DNA of 40,668 nt, taken from IMG/VR virus record IMGVR_UViG_2534682060_000017, positions 1 to 40,668 of that record. One strand, 5' to 3'. Positions within the stretch are counted from its first letter, which is position 1; each line of letters opens with the position of its first letter. The notes below the pieces were generated by a model. The model saw nothing but the letters and a program-made list of their open reading frames with translations, ran no database searches and was not told the DNA's origin. The position numbers and the translations under genes are program-made. This stretch comes from a virus. Its lineage: Duplodnaviria > Heunggongvirae > Uroviricota > Caudoviricetes. Positions 4,945 to 20,116 of the stretch are shown piece by piece.

Positions 4945-5391
4945 ATGGACCGGGATGATATTCTTGACAGAATTTTATATGGCTATTTTCTTGAGCAACT
5001 ATTTTCGGTAGCAACTGGTCGTCTCGATAAACTTCTCTCAGTGGTGAGTATTATCCTCGGTTCATCTGTCATTGGCGGATTCATTCCGGAAATTTCTGGC
5101 GTTTTTATTGTTGTGATCGCAACCGTCCAAACGATTTATGGATTCGGACAAAAGTCAGGTAACGCCATGAGAAAATCCGCAGAATATTTGCAGCTTTTTG
5201 ATGATGCAGAAAAATATTCTGATTCTGAATTGAAAATGCAGTTAAAAATTCTGGAAAAAACGGATGTTCATATTTGGTCATCACTTAAAGATATTGCGAT
5301 CTTAAAAACACAGATCAAAATAGGCGTTTCCATCGAACAACAAGAGAAGCTGCCCACAAAATCTAAATTGATGCGATTTCTTTGTAGTTAG
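4945..5391 (+). CDS. Putative superinfection exclusion membrane protein (SieB-like)
   Basis: 148-aa ORF on opposite strand inside the early-left region, as sieB is in lambda/Rac; long hydrophobic segment LSVVSIILGSSVIGGFIPEISGVFIVVIATV; AGGTGA RBS. Confidence 0.5.
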   Translation: MDRDDILDRILYGYFLEQLFSVATGRLDKLLSVVSIILGSSVIGGFIPEISGVFIVVIATVQTIYGFGQKSGNAMRKSAEYLQLFDDAEKYSDSELKMQLKILEKTDVHIWSSLKDIAILKTQIKIGVSIEQQEKLPTKSKLMRFLCS

Positions 5392-5444
5392 GAATATCCA
5401 GAATGTTAAAGAGCATGCCGGAGATTTATCCGTGTCCGGCGCAT

Positions 5445-5469
5445 GTTCTCCACCTTACCCGTGGAGAAC
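5445..5469. terminator. Hairpin between convergent genes (possible bidirectional terminator)
   Basis: 9-bp perfect stem GTTCTCCAC / GTGGAGAAC with 7-nt loop, between the SieB-like gene end and the minus-strand gene end. Confidence 0.4.
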
Positions 5470-5844
5470 TTAATGATTAATTGATATTTTATAGTTGGCT
5501 TCAACTTTCCCATCTGAAGTGGGATGCTTTAAATCACAGGAATTAATGTTGCACTCAGTAAAATGGTTTTTAAGGGGTTCTATTCGAATCCCTTTCTTTT
5601 CCATCAACAAACCAAACCCCTTGTTAATGATATCCATTAATTCCAGGAAGTATTTTTCAGAGGAATCATGCTTATCAGAGTGCTGCTTCTCTTCGTACAA
5701 CCCGATAAAGGCACGGCGCACGTTACCGGATATATTATCTATGGTTTCTTTTTCTACGGTACTCAGGTCAAGAGTCGCCAGTTGGGAACGAACTATATTC
5801 GCTGCCATTTCCTGGAATTGCATTGGTAAATCTTTAAATTCCAT
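5470..5844 (-). CDS. Hypothetical early-left protein
   Basis: 124-aa ORF; GAGG RBS 6 nt upstream of ATG at 5844; TGATG overlap with upstream gene stop. Confidence 0.5.
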   Translation of the reverse strand: MEFKDLPMQFQEMAANIVRSQLATLDLSTVEKETIDNISGNVRRAFIGLYEEKQHSDKHDSSEKYFLELMDIINKGFGLLMEKKGIRIEPLKNHFTECNINSCDLKHPTSDGKVEANYKISINH

Positions 5845-5855
5845 AGTCAACCTCA

Positions 5856-6008
5856 TCAGTCAGTATTTCTGGCTAACCAGCGACGCGCGCCAGATTCGGT
5901 TTTAAACGTTTTGCTTTTGGTATACGTCATCGCGGTGAATATGCCGTCCTGGTTGGGAAACACGCCGTATACCAGAGATTCGTTGTTGCCAAGATCGATA
6001 GTATCCAT
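5856..6008 (-). CDS. Small Rac-type early protein (YdaF/YdaG-like, 50 aa)
   Basis: ATG at 6008 preceded by GAGG (5-nt spacing); product MDTIDLGNNESLVYGVFPNQDG... resembles small proteins encoded next to racR in Rac prophage (from memory). Confidence 0.5.
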   Translation of the reverse strand: MDTIDLGNNESLVYGVFPNQDGIFTAMTYTKSKTFKTESGARRWLARNTD

Positions 6009-9936: not shown

Positions 9937-10376
9937 AGAGACTAAAGAGCATTAATACATATGTGAATTGAAATTTTCATGGTACAGGGGAGAGCTAGCG
10001 TGGTTGTCCGCTTTGTGCTAGAGGTGGATATTGAGGGGGATCAGAGGATATTTAAAATGGATGGTCCGTTTTACAGATGTACTTACATAATCACTGCCTA
10101 GTTGCTTCCTTTATGCCACGCTTTTATGCCCCAAAGATAGGTGTTGATGATAGCGGTAGTCGGTTCGGTGTAATACAACTGCTCGGTTACCGTAATCACT
10201 AATGGTGCCTGAGATTGCTTCTACGTAAGGGGGTAAGGAGTTGGCTCTGAGCATGTCAGCAACGAGGCCATAGTCTGCTGACTTCGGGGGGGGCATTCAG
10301 GAGCAGAATGAACAGATGGGGCGGGATTGGCTAATAATATTACCCATGGCGAATGTTAGCGACATGATCATATTCA

Positions 10377-10412
10377 GGTCATCAGCGGTCATCAGCGGTC
10401 ATCCGTGTCATC
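10377..10412. repeat. Tandem direct repeats of a 10-bp unit (GGTCATCAGC x2, then GGTCATCCGT, GTCATC)
   Basis: Read directly in the sequence about 240 bp upstream of the 834-aa gene; possible iteron-like protein-binding site. Confidence 0.6.
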
Positions 10413-10654
10413 TAGGGCTCTATCCTGACAGAAAACTATCCGGCACACTGCGTGAAAAATCAGAGTAAATGATACCTTCAGAGCATACAGGAGAAAGTCG
10501 ACGCTTTTCAAACGTGTGCCTTAAGAATTAGAGGATAATATAACAAAAATGAAATTTAGGATAACATCAGACTTGACATAGCTAGGTTATTGTAACTAAA
10601 TGCGGTAAAACTAATCAGAAAAATTTTCGTTATTTTTTATAGAGAGAATAATCT

Positions 10655-13159
10655 ATGGAGAAAACATTTATTTCGGAAATATTATCAGCTTATCATCATT
10701 TACAATTAGAAAATGCAAATGAAGCAGCCACAAGACTAAAAGTGATAGATCGGGTATTAAAGGAAGTCTTGATGTGGACTGATAGTGATATAAAACCAGA
10801 AGAGCATGTGACTGAAGATGGTTTGACAACTTATGCTGATTATATACTAAAAACAGCTAATATTGCTCTTGTTGTTGAAGCTAAAAAGGCAGGGCCAAGC
10901 TTTAGTACAATTCCAGGAAAAAGAAAAATAAAGCTAAGTAATAGTTTTTTACAAAGTGATCTTGGTGAAGCGATAATACAAGCTAGAGATTACGCCAGGA
11001 AATTTGGTATAGATTATGCTGTCGCTACGAATGGAAATGTATGGGCATGTTTTGCAGCTCAGAGGCATGACAATGTCAAATTTAATGATTCAATAGCGCT
11101 TGTGTTCTGGTCGTTAGAAGATTGCTTAAATGATAATTATCAAGAATTCTATGATTTACTTAGTCGTGAAAATGTTATATCAGGAAGTCTAGAAACAGCA
11201 CTTTTAGGTCGCGTCGAAAATCAAATAGAATTTAGAAAATTAAGAAATTTTTATTCGCAACAAAACAGAACACAGACAAATAATCCAATATATCATTTGA
11301 TTGCTGATGAATTAAGGTTGGCTTTTTCTGATTCTATACTTTACTTGGATGAAGACTCCTTTGATAAATGTTATGTTTCAACACCAGAAACTATGAGATT
11401 CGATAGTAAAATTAGAATGAATATAGGTAGGCGTTCAAGTGTGCTGAATGGTGAAGTACTAAAAGGGCTTAATGATAAAGATACAAAAAGAATAGTTGAT
11501 AAGTTTCAGGTTAAAGGGAAGAAAAAAATAAAAGTCAGGAATGACAAACCTCTCGCGATCTTGTTACTTGGGACTGTAGGTGCAGGTAAAACAACATTTC
11601 TTCATTACATGAGAAAGGTTAGAATAAAAGAGTTTTTTTCAAATCAATGTGATATCTTGACGCCGCATTGGGTTCATATAGACTTTCTAGATAATCCATC
11701 AGAAAGTTCAATAGTCGATTTTATTTATAAATCAATTCTGGAATATATCAATAAGCATCCTGTTTTGAGTAATAAGGATTTTGTATTTGATGCATTTCGA
11801 GAAGATATTGAGGCGATAAAATCAGGACCTCTTTTTTTATTGAGTGAGGATCAAAAAAATACCAGAATCTCGGATTTTTTATATGAACAATATAAAAAGA
11901 TAAAACCTTATGTTGATAAAATAATAAGTCGCGTTACAAAAGAGACATCTTTTTTTCTTGTTATTGATAACGTTGATCAGATCGAGTTTGATGATATCCA
12001 GTCCCGGATATTTACCGAGTCATTTTCAATTTCCAGAGCGCTTTCATTAAATTTAGTACTTTCATTGAGGCAGTCTACATTTATCAAACATAAAAACTCA
12101 CCTGCTATAGATGCTTTCGATTTTGAAGTTATACAAATAGATCCACCGAGAATAAGTAGTGTGATTGCAAAACGCTTTGCACTAGTAAAGTATATGACAA
12201 GTAATAAAAGTGGAAATTTTATTGCAGAAAATGGCGCTAAAGTTGTATTGGATGATATATCACAATTAGTCGATATTATTAGTGGGTCTGTGCTGGGAAG
12301 TGAGATTGGAACACGTATTGAAGTTCTTGCTACGGATGATGTTCGATTAGCATTACGTATGACTCGTGAGTTCTTAGAAAGAGGGTATACGAGTCCAGGT
12401 AAAGCAGTACAAATTTTCAGAGAACAAGGAAGATATCTTCTTCCACGTCATGAGGCATTTAGAGCTATATTACTGGGTACTGAGTTGACTTATAGCGAGT
12501 CAACGTCGACTATTGCGAACCCGTTTGATTCGAATTTAGCTGTGACACAAATGCAATTATTGAGGCTGTACATTCTTAATGTTATCGTTTCGTATGCAAG
12601 CGATCCCGGATTCAGACAAATCGATGGTTCGGTAATAACTGAAAAGTTAAGGTTAATTGGTATAGGTGACTCTTTCACGCATCGAGTTCTCGTTGATTTA
12701 TGCAATAAAAGGTTTTTGTTCACCGTAAATCACGGAGATCCAACAGCTTCATCAAGTTTCATTCCTTCTCGGCTGGGGGGGTATATTGCAAAAGAACTTA
12801 TTAGTAATTTCACGTTTATAGAGTGTATGCTTTATGATACATATATTGCTGATGCTAAGGTATGGAGTAGATTAAGAGATCTGAGTGCTAGAATTGAGTC
12901 TGAAAGAGATGTAATAAAAAGGATCACAATGCGTGTAAGTCGAGCAAAAACTTTCTATTATCAAATGGAAAAACTTATTTCACCGCTTTGTTCCGAAGCT
13001 ATTATAAGAGGGTTGCCTTCACAATGGTGTTCTAACCCTCTTCAGGAGCGTTTACCTGAGTTAAGAAAAGAACTAAGAAGAGTTCTTAATTCTGCAAAAA
13101 AAACATATCAACCGAAACAGGATGATTCGTCTAAGTATTTCCTTGATGAAACGGTTTAA
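10655..13159 (+). CDS. Candidate anti-phage defence protein: N-terminal HsdR-N/Mrr-like PD-(D/E)xK nuclease domain fused to P-loop NTPase (Walker A GTVGAGKTT, Walker B FFLVIDNVD) and C-terminal helical domain
   Basis: 834-aa ORF, markedly AT-rich versus flanking phage genes; N-terminus ATRLKVIDRVL..LMW ... ADYIL ... VVEAKK fits the HsdR-N/Mrr D...ExK pattern; Walker A at aa 306-314, hhhhDN Walker B at about aa 433-439; flanked by AT-rich non-coding DNA. Confidence 0.85.
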   Translation: MEKTFISEILSAYHHLQLENANEAATRLKVIDRVLKEVLMWTDSDIKPEEHVTEDGLTTYADYILKTANIALVVEAKKAGPSFSTIPGKRKIKLSNSFLQSDLGEAIIQARDYARKFGIDYAVATNGNVWACFAAQRHDNVKFNDSIALVFWSLEDCLNDNYQEFYDLLSRENVISGSLETALLGRVENQIEFRKLRNFYSQQNRTQTNNPIYHLIADELRLAFSDSILYLDEDSFDKCYVSTPETMRFDSKIRMNIGRRSSVLNGEVLKGLNDKDTKRIVDKFQVKGKKKIKVRNDKPLAILLLGTVGAGKTTFLHYMRKVRIKEFFSNQCDILTPHWVHIDFLDNPSESSIVDFIYKSILEYINKHPVLSNKDFVFDAFREDIEAIKSGPLFLLSEDQKNTRISDFLYEQYKKIKPYVDKIISRVTKETSFFLVIDNVDQIEFDDIQSRIFTESFSISRALSLNLVLSLRQSTFIKHKNSPAIDAFDFEVIQIDPPRISSVIAKRFALVKYMTSNKSGNFIAENGAKVVLDDISQLVDIISGSVLGSEIGTRIEVLATDDVRLALRMTREFLERGYTSPGKAVQIFREQGRYLLPRHEAFRAILLGTELTYSESTSTIANPFDSNLAVTQMQLLRLYILNVIVSYASDPGFRQIDGSVITEKLRLIGIGDSFTHRVLVDLCNKRFLFTVNHGDPTASSSFIPSRLGGYIAKELISNFTFIECMLYDTYIADAKVWSRLRDLSARIESERDVIKRITMRVSRAKTFYYQMEKLISPLCSEAIIRGLPSQWCSNPLQERLPELRKELRRVLNSAKKTYQPKQDDSSKYFLDETV

Positions 13160-13162
13160 AAG

Positions 13163-13192
13163 ATGGGGCTAGTATGCCCCATGCTATTATCT
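13163..13192 (+). terminator. Hairpin immediately after the 834-aa gene stop
   Basis: ATGGGGC / GCCCCAT 7-bp stem with 6-nt loop followed by a U-rich stretch. Confidence 0.4.
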
Positions 13193-13879
13193 TACTAAAA
13201 TAAATTTGGAAGTGCTGTTACAATAGATAGAGGCTCATTGTCGAGTCTCTGTTTTAATTAGTTGGTTATTTTATGTTTATTTATTTCGATATCAGATAAA
13301 AAATCAATAAAGACAGCTTTGTTGCTAGTATTTAATTCTGTAGTAATATACGGATAGTTGTTTTCTGATATACCACATATCTTTAATTGTTGGTTTTTGT
13401 CTTAGTTGATTTAAATTCAATCAACCACTCCAGCAACCTAAATATTCCTCCAGTTCCAAACAATGAATATATGATCAGGAGCATAGCACTGCTCTTCATT
13501 AAAAATTTACACTTAGTTTTGAGAAAACTGCTTACGTTATCTTAACTCTGAATTTGTACATCTTAAGAAGTGCTAGTTATATTTAGTTGTTGTGTTCCAT
13601 GTTTTACAGAAAAATCAGAGAAACTGTACTCAATAGTTGCATTTCATCACTGATGAGACCGCCTTGTATTTATCAGGACTGGTGTACGTCCGATACAGAA
13701 AGTTGTCGTGCTGGTCCTCAAATGTGCGCTGGCTATTGCGGGTAATGGCAATTTATTGTCTTGCTATTGTCCTTATGGATCGCCTTTCTGATTGATTTTA
13801 TATTGGCGAGGTAACGGGAGTTAAGTACAATGGCTGCGGGTGCTTGAGGCTATCTGTCTCAGGCATGAACACCAAAGGC

Positions 13880-13960
13880 AGATAGAGAAAAGCCCCAGTT
13901 AACATTACGCGTCCTGCAAGACGCTTAACATTAATCTGAGGCTCAATCTATGAACGGCAA
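13880..13960 (-). ncRNA. Predicted Sok-like antisense RNA region (approximate)
   Basis: Inference from hok/sok architecture: antisense RNA normally overlaps the hok leader/upstream ORF start; possible minus-strand promoter TTGCCT-17-TAACCT near 13955-13985; boundaries uncertain. Confidence 0.25.
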
Positions 13961-14006
13961 ATCTAGGTTAGCCTCTTACGTGCCGAAAGGCAAGGAGAAG
14001 CAGGCT

Positions 14007-14162
14007 ATGAAGCAGCAAAAGGCGATGTTAATCGCCCTGATCGTCATCTGTTTAACCGTCATTGTGACGGCACTGGTAACGAGGAAAGACCTCTGCGAGG
14101 TACGAATCCGAACCGGCCAGACGGAGGTCGCTGTCTTCACAGCTTACGAACCTGAGGAGTAA
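14007..14162 (+). CDS. hok: Hok/Gef family type I toxin
   Basis: Product MKQQKAMLIALIVICLTVIVTALVTRKDLCEVRIRTGQTEVAVFTAYEPEE closely resembles Hok/Gef; in-frame upstream ATG at 13950 gives a mok-like extension; mRNA leader resembles the R1 hok leader. Confidence 0.8.
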   Translation: MKQQKAMLIALIVICLTVIVTALVTRKDLCEVRIRTGQTEVAVFTAYEPEE

Positions 14163-14230
14163 GAGACCTGGCGGGGGAGAAATCCCTCGCCACCTCTGAT
14201 GTGTCAGGCATCCTCAACGCACCCGCACTT

Positions 14231-14251
14231 AACCCGCTTCGGCGGGTTTTT
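14231..14251 (+). terminator. Rho-independent terminator (AACCCGC-TTCG-GCGGGTT + T-run)
   Basis: GC stem, tetraloop, 5 T; also serves as hok mRNA 3' end. Confidence 0.6.
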
Positions 14252-14377
14252 CGTCGCATTATGAGGTTGTAATTTTAGCTACCATTAGACTATCCTAAGG
14301 ATCTCAAACAGATCTATTTTGCATCAAATTTGGTGCATGGCTTTGCCAATAATCGGAAAACAAAAGGACTCATTAGT

Positions 14378-14557
14378 ATGAGCTGCCCACTCAAAAAACA
14401 CACGCGGTTGAGTATTCCGCCTCGCGATAAAAGCGTTGTGGCAGTCCCTCGCCCAGCGATTGATGAAAACTGCGCACATCGTGAACAAGTGAAAAATGCT
14501 TTTGATTTCGGTTTTTCTCGTTATGAGAAAGCCATGGAAGAACTTTCAAAAGTGTAA
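14378..14557 (+). CDS. Putative antitoxin-like small protein upstream of Doc-family toxin
   Basis: 59-aa ORF from ATG 14378 with AAGGA RBS; stop 18 nt before the Doc-like start; identity by position only. Confidence 0.4.
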   Translation: MSCPLKKHTRLSIPPRDKSVVAVPRPAIDENCAHREQVKNAFDFGFSRYEKAMEELSKV

Positions 14558-14575
14558 TGATGGGTATTGTGCTCT

Positions 14576-15061
14576 ATGGCTGAGATTGTTGAAGGAGTGC
14601 ATTACCTTACGGTTGATGATCTTGTTGAAATCAATCGTTCCCTAATTGAATTACAGACGCCAGATGAGCCCGTTGGTGTTCTGAGTCCAGATAACTTAAG
14701 TTCTTCTCAGGCCCGTCCCAGCATGGTTCGATGGTATGAACAGACTAATGACATGTTTGTACTGGCATCGGTATTGATTGAAAGTCTGATTCAGAATCAT
14801 CCGTTTGCTAATGCGAACAAACGAACAGCTATGATGGCTGGTTACGTCTTCTTGTTGTTGAATGGCTATGAGTTAACAGCACCAGGCGATGAAATCGTGG
14901 AAATGGCAGAGGGACTGGCCTGCAAAACCTATACTCGAGAAGATCTCGAGAACTGGTTGTGTTATTGGTCTCGCGCGTATGACAGCCGGGAATTATGTAA
15001 AACAGGCGCAACTATTGTTTTGTATGAAACTATCAAGCTTAGAATAGAACAGCAAAACTAA
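14576..15061 (+). CDS. doc: Fic/Doc family toxin (death-on-curing-like)
   Basis: Contains the Fic/Doc signature HPFANANKR (HxFx(D/N)(A/G)NKR) followed by MMAGYVFLLLNGYEL. Confidence 0.75.
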   Translation: MAEIVEGVHYLTVDDLVEINRSLIELQTPDEPVGVLSPDNLSSSQARPSMVRWYEQTNDMFVLASVLIESLIQNHPFANANKRTAMMAGYVFLLLNGYELTAPGDEIVEMAEGLACKTYTREDLENWLCYWSRAYDSRELCKTGATIVLYETIKLRIEQQN

Positions 15062-17795: not shown

Positions 17796-18509
17796 ATGGA
17801 TGACAGTGCTCTGCTCAGAAACTCTTCACTTTTTGTTGCTTATATGGGCTGTCTAGGATGGGGAAGCGCTTATTTCTATGGATGGGGTACTTCATTTTAC
17901 TATGGCTTTCCATGGTGGGTTGTCGGGGCTGGTGTCGATGATGTAGCACGAAGTTTGTTTTATGCTGTGACAGTTATCGTTATATTCCTTATTGGATGGG
18001 GAGTTGGTATTGTTTTCTTTTTGGGCATAAAACAAAAGCGCAATATACAAAATTTGAGTTTTATCCGGCTTTTTCTCGCGATATTGCTGCTTTTTATTCC
18101 ACCTGTTCTGGAGTTTTCGGTAATTCATCAGCATGTTGAGCCAGATGTACTGATTTTCTGCATTCTTGCTGCCTTTACAATCACGCTTTTTGTCAGGTTT
18201 GGAAGAAGACTTGTTTCAGTCAAATGTTTTTCGGAAATGTCTTTTATTCGTCATCACCGAATTGAGTTCATGATGGCTGGGTTTATGATTTATTTCTGGG
18301 CATTCTCTCTTATTGCCGGTTGGTACAAACCACAGTTTAAGAGGGAATATCAGGCGATCCACTATGAGAATGTATGGTATTACATTATTGCGCGTTATGA
18401 TGATCGTCTGGTGTTATCGAAATCATACAGGAGTGGGGGTAAGAAATTCGTTATATTTAATAGCGGAAATATTAATGATTTTGAAATTAATACAGTCAGA
18501 GTGCGTTAA
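17796..18509 (+). CDS. AT-rich cargo gene encoding multi-pass membrane protein of unknown function
   Basis: 237-aa ORF with several hydrophobic helices in the N-terminal two thirds and a soluble C-terminal domain; lower GC than phage backbone; sits in the post-Q moron position. Confidence 0.6.
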   Translation: MDDSALLRNSSLFVAYMGCLGWGSAYFYGWGTSFYYGFPWWVVGAGVDDVARSLFYAVTVIVIFLIGWGVGIVFFLGIKQKRNIQNLSFIRLFLAILLLFIPPVLEFSVIHQHVEPDVLIFCILAAFTITLFVRFGRRLVSVKCFSEMSFIRHHRIEFMMAGFMIYFWAFSLIAGWYKPQFKREYQAIHYENVWYYIIARYDDRLVLSKSYRSGGKKFVIFNSGNINDFEINTVRVR

Positions 18510-19030: not shown

Positions 19031-20116
19031 ATGGTTGATACTGTAAAAATATCCAGTTGTGAGTTAATCAACGCTGATTGCCTGGAATTTATCCAGACCT
19101 TACCGGAAAACTCTGTCGATCTGATAGTCACAGACCCGCCATACTTTAAAGTGAAGCCCGAGGGCTGGGATAACCAGTGGAAGGGCGACGATGATTACCT
19201 GAAATGGCTGGATCAGTGTCTGGCTCAGTTCTGGCGGGTACTGAAACCTGCCGGAAGTCTCTACCTGTTCTGTGGTCATCGCCTGGCATCTGACACCGAA
19301 ATCATGATGCGTGAGCGCTTTAATGTGCTGAACCACATTATCTGGGCGAAGCCATCCGGACGCTGGAACGGGTGCAACAAAGAAAGCCTGCGGGCGTATT
19401 TCCCGGCAACAGAGCGCATTCTGTTTGCCGAACATTATCAGGGGCCATACCAGCCAAAAAATGATGGCTATGCGGCAAAGGAGCGCGAGCTTAAACAACA
19501 CGTCATGGCCCCGCTGATTTCTTACTTCCGTGATGCGCGTGAATCACTGGGGATAACGTCCAAACAGATAGCGGAAGCCACCGGAAAGAAAAACATGGTG
19601 TCGCACTGGTTTGGTACCTGTCAGTGGCAGTTACCGAACGAAGCTGATTACAGAAAACTGCAGGCGCTGTTCGCGTGTGTTGCAGAAGAAAAGCACCAGC
19701 GTGGGGAGCTGGCAACGCCACACCAGCAACTGGTCAGCACATACAGTGAACTGAACCGGCAATATGCCAGTCTGCTTGAGGAATACAAATCTCTGCGGCG
19801 TTATTTTTCTGTATCGGCCGCCGTTCCTTATACGGATGTCTGGACGCATAAGCCCGTACAGTATTATCCGGGTAAGCATCCCTGCGAAAAACCGGCGGAT
19901 ATGTTGCGTCAGATAATTTCTGCCAGCAGTCGTCCGGGGGATGTGGTTGCGGATTTTTTTATGGGATCGGGGGCAACAATAAAAGCAGCAATGGGATTGG
20001 GGCGTCGCACGATTGGGGTTGAACTTGAGTCCGGGCGTTTTGAACAAACAGTTGGTGAAATATTGGTGCTGAACGATAAATTGCGAAATGCACAATTAGA
20101 TAAGAACAGGAGCTAA
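19031..20116 (+). CDS. Orphan DNA methyltransferase (DPPY motif; N6-adenine/N4-cytosine beta class)
   Basis: 361-aa ORF with catalytic motif IV DLIVTDPPY near the N-terminus and SAM-binding FMGSGAT near the C-terminus; no adjacent restriction endonuclease gene. Confidence 0.85.
   Translation: MVDTVKISSCELINADCLEFIQTLPENSVDLIVTDPPYFKVKPEGWDNQWKGDDDYLKWLDQCLAQFWRVLKPAGSLYLFCGHRLASDTEIMMRERFNVLNHIIWAKPSGRWNGCNKESLRAYFPATERILFAEHYQGPYQPKNDGYAAKERELKQHVMAPLISYFRDARESLGITSKQIAEATGKKNMVSHWFGTCQWQLPNEADYRKLQALFACVAEEKHQRGELATPHQQLVSTYSELNRQYASLLEEYKSLRRYFSVSAAVPYTDVWTHKPVQYYPGKHPCEKPADMLRQIISASSRPGDVVADFFMGSGATIKAAMGLGRRTIGVELESGRFEQTVGEILVLNDKLRNAQLDKNRS

Follow-up and report, generated by a model that had tools for sequence, protein, structure and literature searches.

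Location and composition of the gene

The window examined here is the whole of IMG/VR virus record IMGVR_UViG_2534682060_000017, a stretch of 40,668 nucleotides (Caudoviricetes) that carries a lambdoid prophage of the Rac/Qin-like type and, where it was compared with E. coli EC42405, shows 99.7% identity. Its early region contains a gene for a protein of 834 amino acids (aa) in which a restriction-type nuclease is fused to an ORC/Cdc6-like ATPase, and which is probably a horizontally mobile, self-contained immunity gene carried as prophage cargo and directed against phages or plasmids. The gene (10655..13159, + strand) begins with ATG and is the sole long open reading frame (ORF) of its interval; its product is identical or near-identical to WP_001349602.1.

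The prophage genes run from integrase, exonuclease, CI/Cro and YdaT through a replication module (HTH_36, DUF1627 and DUF977) to this ORF, and from there to hok/sok, a Fic/Doc gene, DUF968, RusA and Q, followed by a DNA methylase and the lysis, terminase and morphogenesis genes. The position between the replication module and the nin/Q region is that given in a preliminary description of the sequence, and the spacing reported there, about 700 bp upstream and 790 bp downstream, agrees with the 718 bp measured from the DUF977 stop codon (9936) to the ORF and the 790 bp from the ORF to the hok ORF (13950). The AT-rich character of the gene relative to the phage backbone was also borne out: its GC content is 0.343 and its GC at third codon positions (GC3) 0.24, against 0.487 for the whole window and a GC3 of 0.51-0.56 for the backbone genes. 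The flanks, which had been called AT-rich and poor in ORFs, are so only in part. Upstream, 10031-10500 has a GC content of 0.42-0.55 and only about 10501-10654 is AT-rich (0.25-0.30); downstream, 13183-13565 is AT-rich, but the flank is not empty, as it contains the sok RNA (13838-14012; 110 bits in Rfam).

Domain organization and conserved residues

The structure was modelled with AlphaFold2 from a 97-sequence alignment (full length: predicted local distance difference test, pLDDT, 83.7; predicted template modelling score, pTM, 0.78), and residues were counted in an alignment of 102 full-length representatives with a median identity of 23% to the query. The gene is divided as follows:

10655..13159, + strand: complete nuclease-ATPase ORF, 834 aa; full-length match to PHROG 14719
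10697..11224, + strand: PD-(D/E)xK nuclease of HsdR_N type, aa ~15-190; E23, D62, E75-x-K77, Q109...Y113, T125-N126
11225..11539, + strand: helical linker, aa ~191-295; lowest model confidence, mean column conservation 0.28
11540..12145, + strand: AAA+ alpha/beta base, aa ~296-497; Walker A, Walker B, R472
12146..12475, + strand: AAA+ lid, a helical bundle, aa ~498-607; 'IDPP...SKRF' motif (P498, R507) and sensor-2 motif
12476..12769, + strand: conserved loop (N622, 'NPFD'), then winged-helix domain, aa ~608-705; N622 in 101/102
12770..13156, + strand: C-terminal helical tail, aa ~706-834, with a 30-residue helix; last ~12 residues disordered

The N-terminus had been read as a PD-(D/E)xK nuclease of the HsdR_N/Mrr type, and the catalytic residues are indeed all intact in the alignment: E23 is present in 101 of the 102 sequences and D62, E75, K77 and Q109 in every one. 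E75-A-K77 is as first given; the conserved aspartate, placed at D61, is D62. The core of the domain in the model has the expected alpha-beta-beta-beta-alpha-beta order. The P-loop NTPase that was said to follow is also there, with the Walker A motif GTVGAGKTT at 306-314 (G306-x-x-G309-x-G311-K312-T313; G306, G311 and K312 in 102/102) and the Walker B motif FFLVIDNVD, both as described, the latter at 433-441 (D438-N439-x-D441-Q442; D438, N439 and D441 in 102/102). A helical insert of about 80 aa (353-430) follows strand 2 of the AAA+ base, and R472 occupies the sensor-1 position in 100/102. The lid contributes R507 and R564 (each in 101/102), the second of these within a sensor-2 motif, D/N562-x-R564-x-A-L, which we take to fit the 'GDxRxAL' sensor-2 pattern of Cdc6/Orc1.

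Both halves of the fusion are predicted from these motifs to be catalytically competent. The retention of the catalytic residues in 100-102 of 102 proteins at a median identity of 23% argues for strong purifying selection on both enzymatic activities, and the nuclease and ATPase residues appear to be invariant down to about 20% identity. Since the motif residues are invariant among full-length homologues from many phyla, the ORF is more than a chance reading frame.

The linker and the tail are the most variable regions. Two parts of the linker, residues 260-271 and 283-296, have pLDDT values under 50; conservation in the tail is 0.28, with D728 and R760 retained in 95/102, and no specific fold match was found for it. 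The tail is a candidate specificity or oligomerisation element. The C-terminal region had been described as a helical sensor of about 350 aa, and here the preliminary description has to be revised, as the model and the fold searches divide the region into AAA+ lid, winged helix and a helical tail of about 115 aa. The module 3′ of the nuclease is thus modelled as a complete Cdc6/Orc1-like unit, in which base and lid lead to the winged helix, with a short tail at its end.

Database and fold comparisons

Searches with hidden Markov models (HMMs) placed the protein in no named family of Pfam, NCBIfam or PADLOC v2, in agreement with the earlier remark that a protein of 834 aa with these motifs does not correspond to a readily nameable family. 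For the window protein Pfam gave only sub-threshold matches to NACHT, HSDR_N_2 (E 0.0025), AAA_16 and nSTAND5, and NCBIfam gave nothing useful. HSDR_N_2 is listed for many homologues in precomputed tables, and AAA_16 rises above threshold in one of them (L030). PADLOC v2, run on the window protein and six homologues, returned no family match and no Avs or Brx model; homologues match REase_MTase_IIG (7.6e-6), DrmMI (1.4e-5) and PD_DExK, all weakly and in the N-terminal domain. The full-length match to PHROG 14719 (E 2.9e-301) is to a family of unknown function, and sequence and profile searches of the PDB reached P-loop-level similarity only (E >= 0.003). Public names are generic: 'hypothetical protein' or, for distant relatives, 'P-loop NTPase fold protein' and 'HsdR N-terminal domain-containing protein'. 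WP_001349602 is uncited in the searchable literature, where no account of the architecture was found; the screen of Brenes & Laub 2025 and the clade tables of Lee et al. 2026 lay outside this comparison. The fusion of a restriction-type nuclease with an ORC/Cdc6-like ATPase follows a familiar overall design around an unusual core, and these 2025-26 catalogues could already include it.

When the fold of the full-length model was compared with the PDB (Foldseek), the best matches were to Cdc6/Orc1 of archaea and ORC/Cdc6 of eukaryotes (E 1e-5 to 1e-4), ahead of TnsC, RADAR RdrA and CED-4; Cdc6/Orc1 outscores every STAND protein by a clear margin. Three features are shared by the window protein and the ORC/Cdc6 clade: strand 2 of the base is followed by a helical insert, the lid contains a sensor-2 arginine, and a winged helix lies C-terminal to these. 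It differs in that its identity to Cdc6/Orc1 is only 10-15%, in the STAND-like character of its Walker B motif (DNxDQ) and sensor-1-position arginine, and in the nuclease fusion and the extra helical tail. This combination of a Cdc6/Orc1-like fold with STAND-like motifs would fit a place at the boundary between ORC and STAND proteins; the STAND NTPases are regarded as descendants of the Cdc6/Orc clade (PMC8195603). The protein is bacterial, resides on mobile elements, is patchily distributed and is dispensable, all of which argue against a replication initiator.

In its mode of action the protein would come closest to STAND proteins with a nuclease effector, for example Avs4. On this likeness is built the main rival to our own reading, and the model of the preliminary description: the winged helix and tail, or the linker, would bind a phage protein, leading to STAND-type oligomerisation, indiscriminate cleavage and abortive infection. 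The domain order matches Avs, in which an N-terminal effector is likewise fused to an NTPase (here aa 15-190 before aa 296-607); the NTPase has STAND-like signatures (Walker B hhhhDNxDQ, R472, the weak NACHT and nSTAND5 matches, AAA_16 in L030); the linker and tail vary most; and Avs4 has an Mrr-type nuclease effector (bioRxiv 10.64898/2026.08.25.746987). Of the logic ascribed to Avs/STAND-like proteins, then, the order of effector and NTPase stands, but the large variable sensor with swappable effectors does not. Only about 115 aa follow the winged helix, with no TPR, WD40 or other large sensor (at least 400 aa) of the Avs kind. Lee et al. 2026 (PMC13581612) define 198 defence-associated STAND clades, and the sensors that were clustered there are those of at least 400 aa. 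The solved Avs4 chain has 1,540 residues, so that the window protein is roughly half its length. Avs proteins exchange effectors and sensors as modules, whereas the 150 best representatives of the window family show one fixed architecture, in which neither effectors nor sensors are shuffled; the sequence is highly conserved from end to end, with 45-60% identity between classes. Since, moreover, no Avs model of PADLOC is matched and Cdc6/Orc1 scores clearly above any STAND protein, we consider the Avs-like receptor unlikely. Membership of Avs itself was rejected (no HMM match, no large sensor), as was that of bNACHT, the NACHT module PF05729 remaining below threshold.

Other ATPases of known defence systems were compared in the same way. 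The KAP domain PF07693 is not matched by the window protein at E up to 1, and a precomputed match exists in several homologues (47-52% identity). RADAR RdrA has a deaminase partner, RdrB, and no fused nuclease, and differs further in that the window protein has no PF07693 match at E = 1. The ATPase and winged helix-turn-helix (wHTH) module resembles that of BrxC/DUF499 proteins (PMC12839542), but these are larger (1,200-1,300 residues in BrxC, against 834), are characterised in BrxC/DUF499 by a triad of wHTH, alpha+beta and wHTH, carry extra alpha+beta, wHTH, coiled-coil or RRM domains and belong to multi-gene operons with PglZ and PglX; the window gene stands alone and has a PD-(D/E)xK domain. 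On its length, and with no Brx model matched by PADLOC and no BREX gene among the neighbours of the homologue loci, it was not assigned to BrxC/DUF499.

The nuclease domain belongs to the same HSDR_N subfamily as those of HsdR, Type IIG enzymes and DISARM DrmMI, with the motif set E...D...ExK...Q..Y...(T/S)N. The cleavage domain alone is shared with these enzymes, since the window protein lacks both an SF2 helicase motor and a methyltransferase domain and is not accompanied by HsdM or HsdS. A Type I HsdR subunit was therefore rejected (no ResIII or helicase domain found, no conserved neighbour), and so was McrBC/Type IV membership, as Pfam and PADLOC gave no AAA_5/McrB, McrC, SRA or PUA-like match.

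An NTP-dependent restriction enzyme of Type IV style could still combine such parts in a single chain, in the manner of McrBC or Mrr, the winged helix reading modified or marked DNA, which would be cleaved while the host survives. The HsdR_N-type nuclease domain, presumably of the COG4748 type, and its resemblance to those of Type IIG and DrmMI would suit such an enzyme, as would the ATPase adjoining a DNA-binding winged helix and the lack of a cognate methyltransferase conserved nearby; one plasmid homologue is even annotated 'Predicted type IV restriction endonuclease'. A weak PADLOC match of the window protein to mREase_II (2.9e-4) points the same way, but it spans 48 aa of the Walker B region only and is probably spurious. 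No modified-base reader (SRA, PUA/EVE or McrB-N) was found, and the ATPase is ORC/STAND-like, neither a McrB-type AAA_5 GTPase nor a helicase translocase. We judge Type IV-like restriction to be quite unlikely.

The transferred cassette

The gene and its immediate flanks share about 87% DNA identity with copies on a plasmid, in Enterobacter and in Phytobacter. The features flanking the ORF are as follows:

10031..10504: left filler of the slot; ordinary GC, unannotated, present only in the 8 E. coli genomes with the gene
10505..10654, + strand: AT-rich leader, putative promoter and 5′ untranslated region; travels with the ORF
13163..13182, + strand: terminator-like hairpin ATGGGGC-TAGTAT-GCCCCAT, 4 nt past the stop codon; right cassette end
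13183..13565: right filler of the slot; AT-rich, unannotated, present only in the same 8 genomes as the left filler

The shared DNA begins at 10505, 10537 or 10623, depending on the copy, and stops in all three exactly at 13182, the last base of the hairpin, from which the transferred unit would be a cassette of about 2.7 kb, ~10505 to 13182, made up of leader, ORF and terminator. The GC content drops to 0.25-0.30 from 10501. In the leader the -35 hexamer is perfect (TTGACA, 10573-10578), and both the -10 and the Shine-Dalgarno sequence (AGAGAG, about 9 nt 5′ of the ATG) are weak; from these features it is a putative promoter, as the hairpin is a putative terminator. Both fillers are non-coding and do not belong to the sequence that the plasmid or Enterobacter copies have in common with the window, and common prophage sequence (hok/sok) picks up again at about 13566. 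A search for boundary repeats, att sites and target-site duplications around the cassette found only short, low-identity repeats of the kind expected by chance.

The prophage slot

The slot that holds the cassette in E. coli extends from the end of the DUF977 gene (about 10030) to the hok/sok locus (about 13566). In other prophages the DUF977-hokD slot is occupied by different genes. One carries PD-T7-1 (E 7e-157) with an integrase fragment and hypothetical genes, another an FRG-domain protein that matches the PADLOC candidate PDC-S15 (E 7e-99), and a third an alpha/beta hydrolase. E. coli strain 361 (L048, 7021-10094) has a ThsA-like SIR2 protein (8.9e-32) and a CARF-ADA-like deaminase/amidohydrolase (2.9e-36) there, together with a TetR regulator and a non-canonical NTP pyrophosphatase; this cluster may be a multi-gene defence system without a name. 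Three of the four alternative contents therefore include known or candidate defence genes, in keeping with the cargo hotspot that had been proposed. Another Rac-like prophage has, in the same slot by DUF977, a family member that differs at the level of a paralogue (P0089, 47% identity); its reversed orientation points to an independent capture.

Family size and distribution

A word-indexed search found 396 relatives; among the matches listed, these are essentially full-length, have 45-93% identity and come from Proteobacteria and Melainabacteria. Full-length identity across classes is 45-60%. When 1.84 billion representative proteins (clusters at 50% identity) were searched exhaustively with HMMER, the numbers of representatives were as follows:

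E-value 1e-30: 589
E-value 1e-10: 1,373
E-value 1e-3: 2,079

The family thus comprises at least 589 clusters at 50% identity. The top 150 matches are colinear proteins, mostly of ~780-880 aa, or shorter ones that correspond to a single uninterrupted section of the profile. None was seen to have a different domain at its N- or C-terminus, and the architecture of the family appears from these sequences to be fixed. Among 185,579 species genomes (one genome per species) we found 46 loci, which span Proteobacteria, Spirochaetes, Acidobacteriota, Aminicenantes, Nitrospira, Desulfobacterota, Firmicutes and Planctomycetes. In E. coli, each of two variants matched 8 of 5,426 complete genomes in separate searches. 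The distribution is rare and patchy. The gene is poorer in GC than the flanking DNA at every one of 40 loci, with a mean difference of 12.5 points.

Carriers, neighbours and inactivated copies

The gene is found at the edge of Pf-like filamentous prophages of P. aeruginosa, at the end of a PM2-like prophage of Vibrio, on conjugative IncF-type plasmids of Klebsiella, Enterobacter and Serratia (93% identity) and, in Aeromonas, as a solitary islet between type VI secretion system and thrABC genes. Composition, cassette and unrelated carriers all support the horizontal acquisition that the preliminary description had proposed. An all-against-all comparison of neighbours in 37 loci, with 36 of them having a recognisable main gene, revealed no conserved neighbour, so that the unit is a single gene, again as proposed, with no cognate partner. 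This absence of a conserved partner rules out a multi-gene system of the classical restriction-modification, BREX or Tn7-like TnsABC type. In a scan that covered 135 neighbour proteins, Septu PtuA, Shedu SduA, PD-Lambda-1, Drt8 or a type I methyltransferase was located no more than two genes away, in single loci each.

Resolvases, integrases, transposases or group II introns adjoin several loci. For instance, a serine resolvase (PF00239) lies 77-781 bp from the homologue in five mainly alphaproteobacterial loci (L010, L019, L022, L028 and L033), which suggests that in this lineage a small recombinase moves together with the gene, and rve transposases are near the homologue in two loci. Inactivated copies also occur. 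IS1A splits the ORF in E. coli H7 (L061), IS903B interrupts the gene in two Serratia plasmids (NZ_CP011641.1 and NZ_CP029448.1), and split ORFs were found in five species genomes; such recurrent inactivation is consistent with a costly or dispensable gene.

These data bear on the explanation that the protein has no part in defence and is instead the element's own ORC/Cdc6-like replication initiator, a transposition or target-selection factor resembling TnsA plus TnsC, or an addiction module. Cdc6/Orc1 and TnsC are the top structural matches, TnsA is a PD-(D/E)xK nuclease, the gene adjoins the prophage replication module, and the resolvases within 1 kb and the nearby rve transposases could be read in this sense. 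No DDE transposase or other partner is conserved, however, and no antitoxin-like partner is present. The carriers are unrelated (siphovirus-, inovirus- and corticovirus-like prophages, IncF plasmids and bare islets), each with its own replication machinery; most prophages with the same replication module are without the gene and have other cargo in the slot; and the copies disrupted by insertion sequences show that it is dispensable. A role in replication, transposition or addiction for the carrier element is unlikely, and the non-defence explanation as a whole seems to us very improbable.

In Vibrio europaeus (L058) the homologue lies between two adjacent, oppositely oriented PM2-like elements (double-jelly-roll capsid, P2_N/P2_C), in which almost all genes are without Pfam matches.

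Proposed function

That the gene serves defence, or otherwise acts against mobile elements, by whatever mechanism, is in our view likely; for a DNA-sensing, ATP-gated nuclease in particular, the case seems evenly balanced. We infer the defence phenotype, DNA trigger, oligomerisation and cleavage substrate. In the mechanism we propose, the protein has four parts: an HsdR_N-type PD-(D/E)xK endonuclease is joined to an AAA+ ATPase that is ORC/Cdc6-like and stands at the base of the STAND clade, and a winged helix and a short helical tail follow. At rest it would be an inactive monomer or low-order oligomer. The AAA+/winged-helix module would bind a ligand, most likely the nucleic acid of an invading phage or plasmid, much as ORC/Cdc6, TnsC and BrxC-type ATPases do; ATP-dependent oligomerisation would then gather the N-terminal nuclease domains, with DNA cleavage as the result. 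The lysogen, and hence the prophage, would be protected from competing phages or plasmids.

We favour direct sensing of nucleic acid because the protein has no large repeat sensor, its architecture is fixed and its closest structural relatives are ORC/Cdc6, TnsC and BrxC, which are ATP-dependent DNA-binding assemblies. ORC/Cdc6-clade ATPases with wHTH domains work in BREX and related systems and are at times fused to nucleases (PMC12839542), and STAND/ORC ATPases act as oligomerisation switches or nucleic-acid sensors (PMC8195603). A bolder proposal, which we put forward as speculative and rather doubtful, is that the family forms a distinct class of innate immune nucleases, in which the ORC/Cdc6-type ATPase and winged helix load on invading DNA and so license the fused nuclease; the trigger could then be a DNA structure, an end or a replication intermediate, and not a sequence or a phage protein.

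Several observations weigh against the reading of the gene as an immunity cassette. No match above threshold was obtained in PADLOC v2, Pfam or NCBIfam, and tblastn against 50,697 deposited phage genomes found no match. In the promoter scan sites were no more frequent than in the shuffled expectation, expression in the lysogen being presumed. The defence role of family members is deduced from context, and DNA binding and oligomerisation of the protein are presumed as well. Loci beyond E. coli are associated only modestly with defence islands, many of the other neighbours being housekeeping genes, and a STAND-type immune receptor would not ordinarily have so uniform an architecture, in which effectors and sensors are not exchanged.

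If the phenotype is confirmed, the family would represent a compact single-gene defence system of about 2.7 kb that is widespread across many phyla and carrier types, among them clinical IncF plasmids of Klebsiella, Enterobacter and Serratia. If the distinct-class proposal is true, the protein would by itself be an 'origin-recognition-like' DNA sensor of immunity, distinct from Avs, BREX and restriction-modification. Its position at the boundary between ORC/Cdc6 initiators and STAND switches could show how nucleic-acid-sensing ATPases entered immunity, and its small size and lack of repeat sensors would make it a tractable minimal model of ATP-gated nuclease activation. The DUF977-hokD slot of Rac/Qin-like prophages is a defence hotspot worth mining.

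Other features of the prophage

The hok/sok type I toxin-antitoxin locus directly 3′ of the slot is complete (13838-14162) and forms the conserved right border of the cargo slot. In addition to the sok RNA (13838-14012; Rfam, 110 bits) it contains the Mok/Hok ORF (13950-14162), which matches Pfam HOK_GEF (3e-23); about 4,500 of the 5,426 E. coli genomes carry the locus. Beyond sok and a sub-threshold isrK-like Rfam match at 14171-14252, no structured RNA was found in the flanks of the ORF.

A Fic/Doc-family protein (14567-15061; PF02661, 6.9e-12; motif HPFANANKRTA) is preceded by a 75-aa ORF (14330-14557) without a Pfam match. The two may constitute a Phd/Doc-like toxin-antitoxin pair; the prophage in its MS 119-7 form lacks the pair.

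A second AT-rich cargo ORF (17796-18509, 237 aa) lies just 3′ of the antiterminator Q gene, a classic 'moron' position, in a region with a GC content of 0.37-0.40. It has no Pfam match and is hypothetical in relatives. The late region of the prophage contains an orphan N6/N4 DNA methyltransferase (19031-20116; PF01555, 1.5e-42), which is unlinked to the nuclease-ATPase gene in any other context. A low-GC patch is also present in the early-left region at 4945-5856 (GC 0.384 at 5001-5500), where two ORFs without Pfam matches are located, at 4945-5391 (+ strand) and 5470-5856 (- strand).

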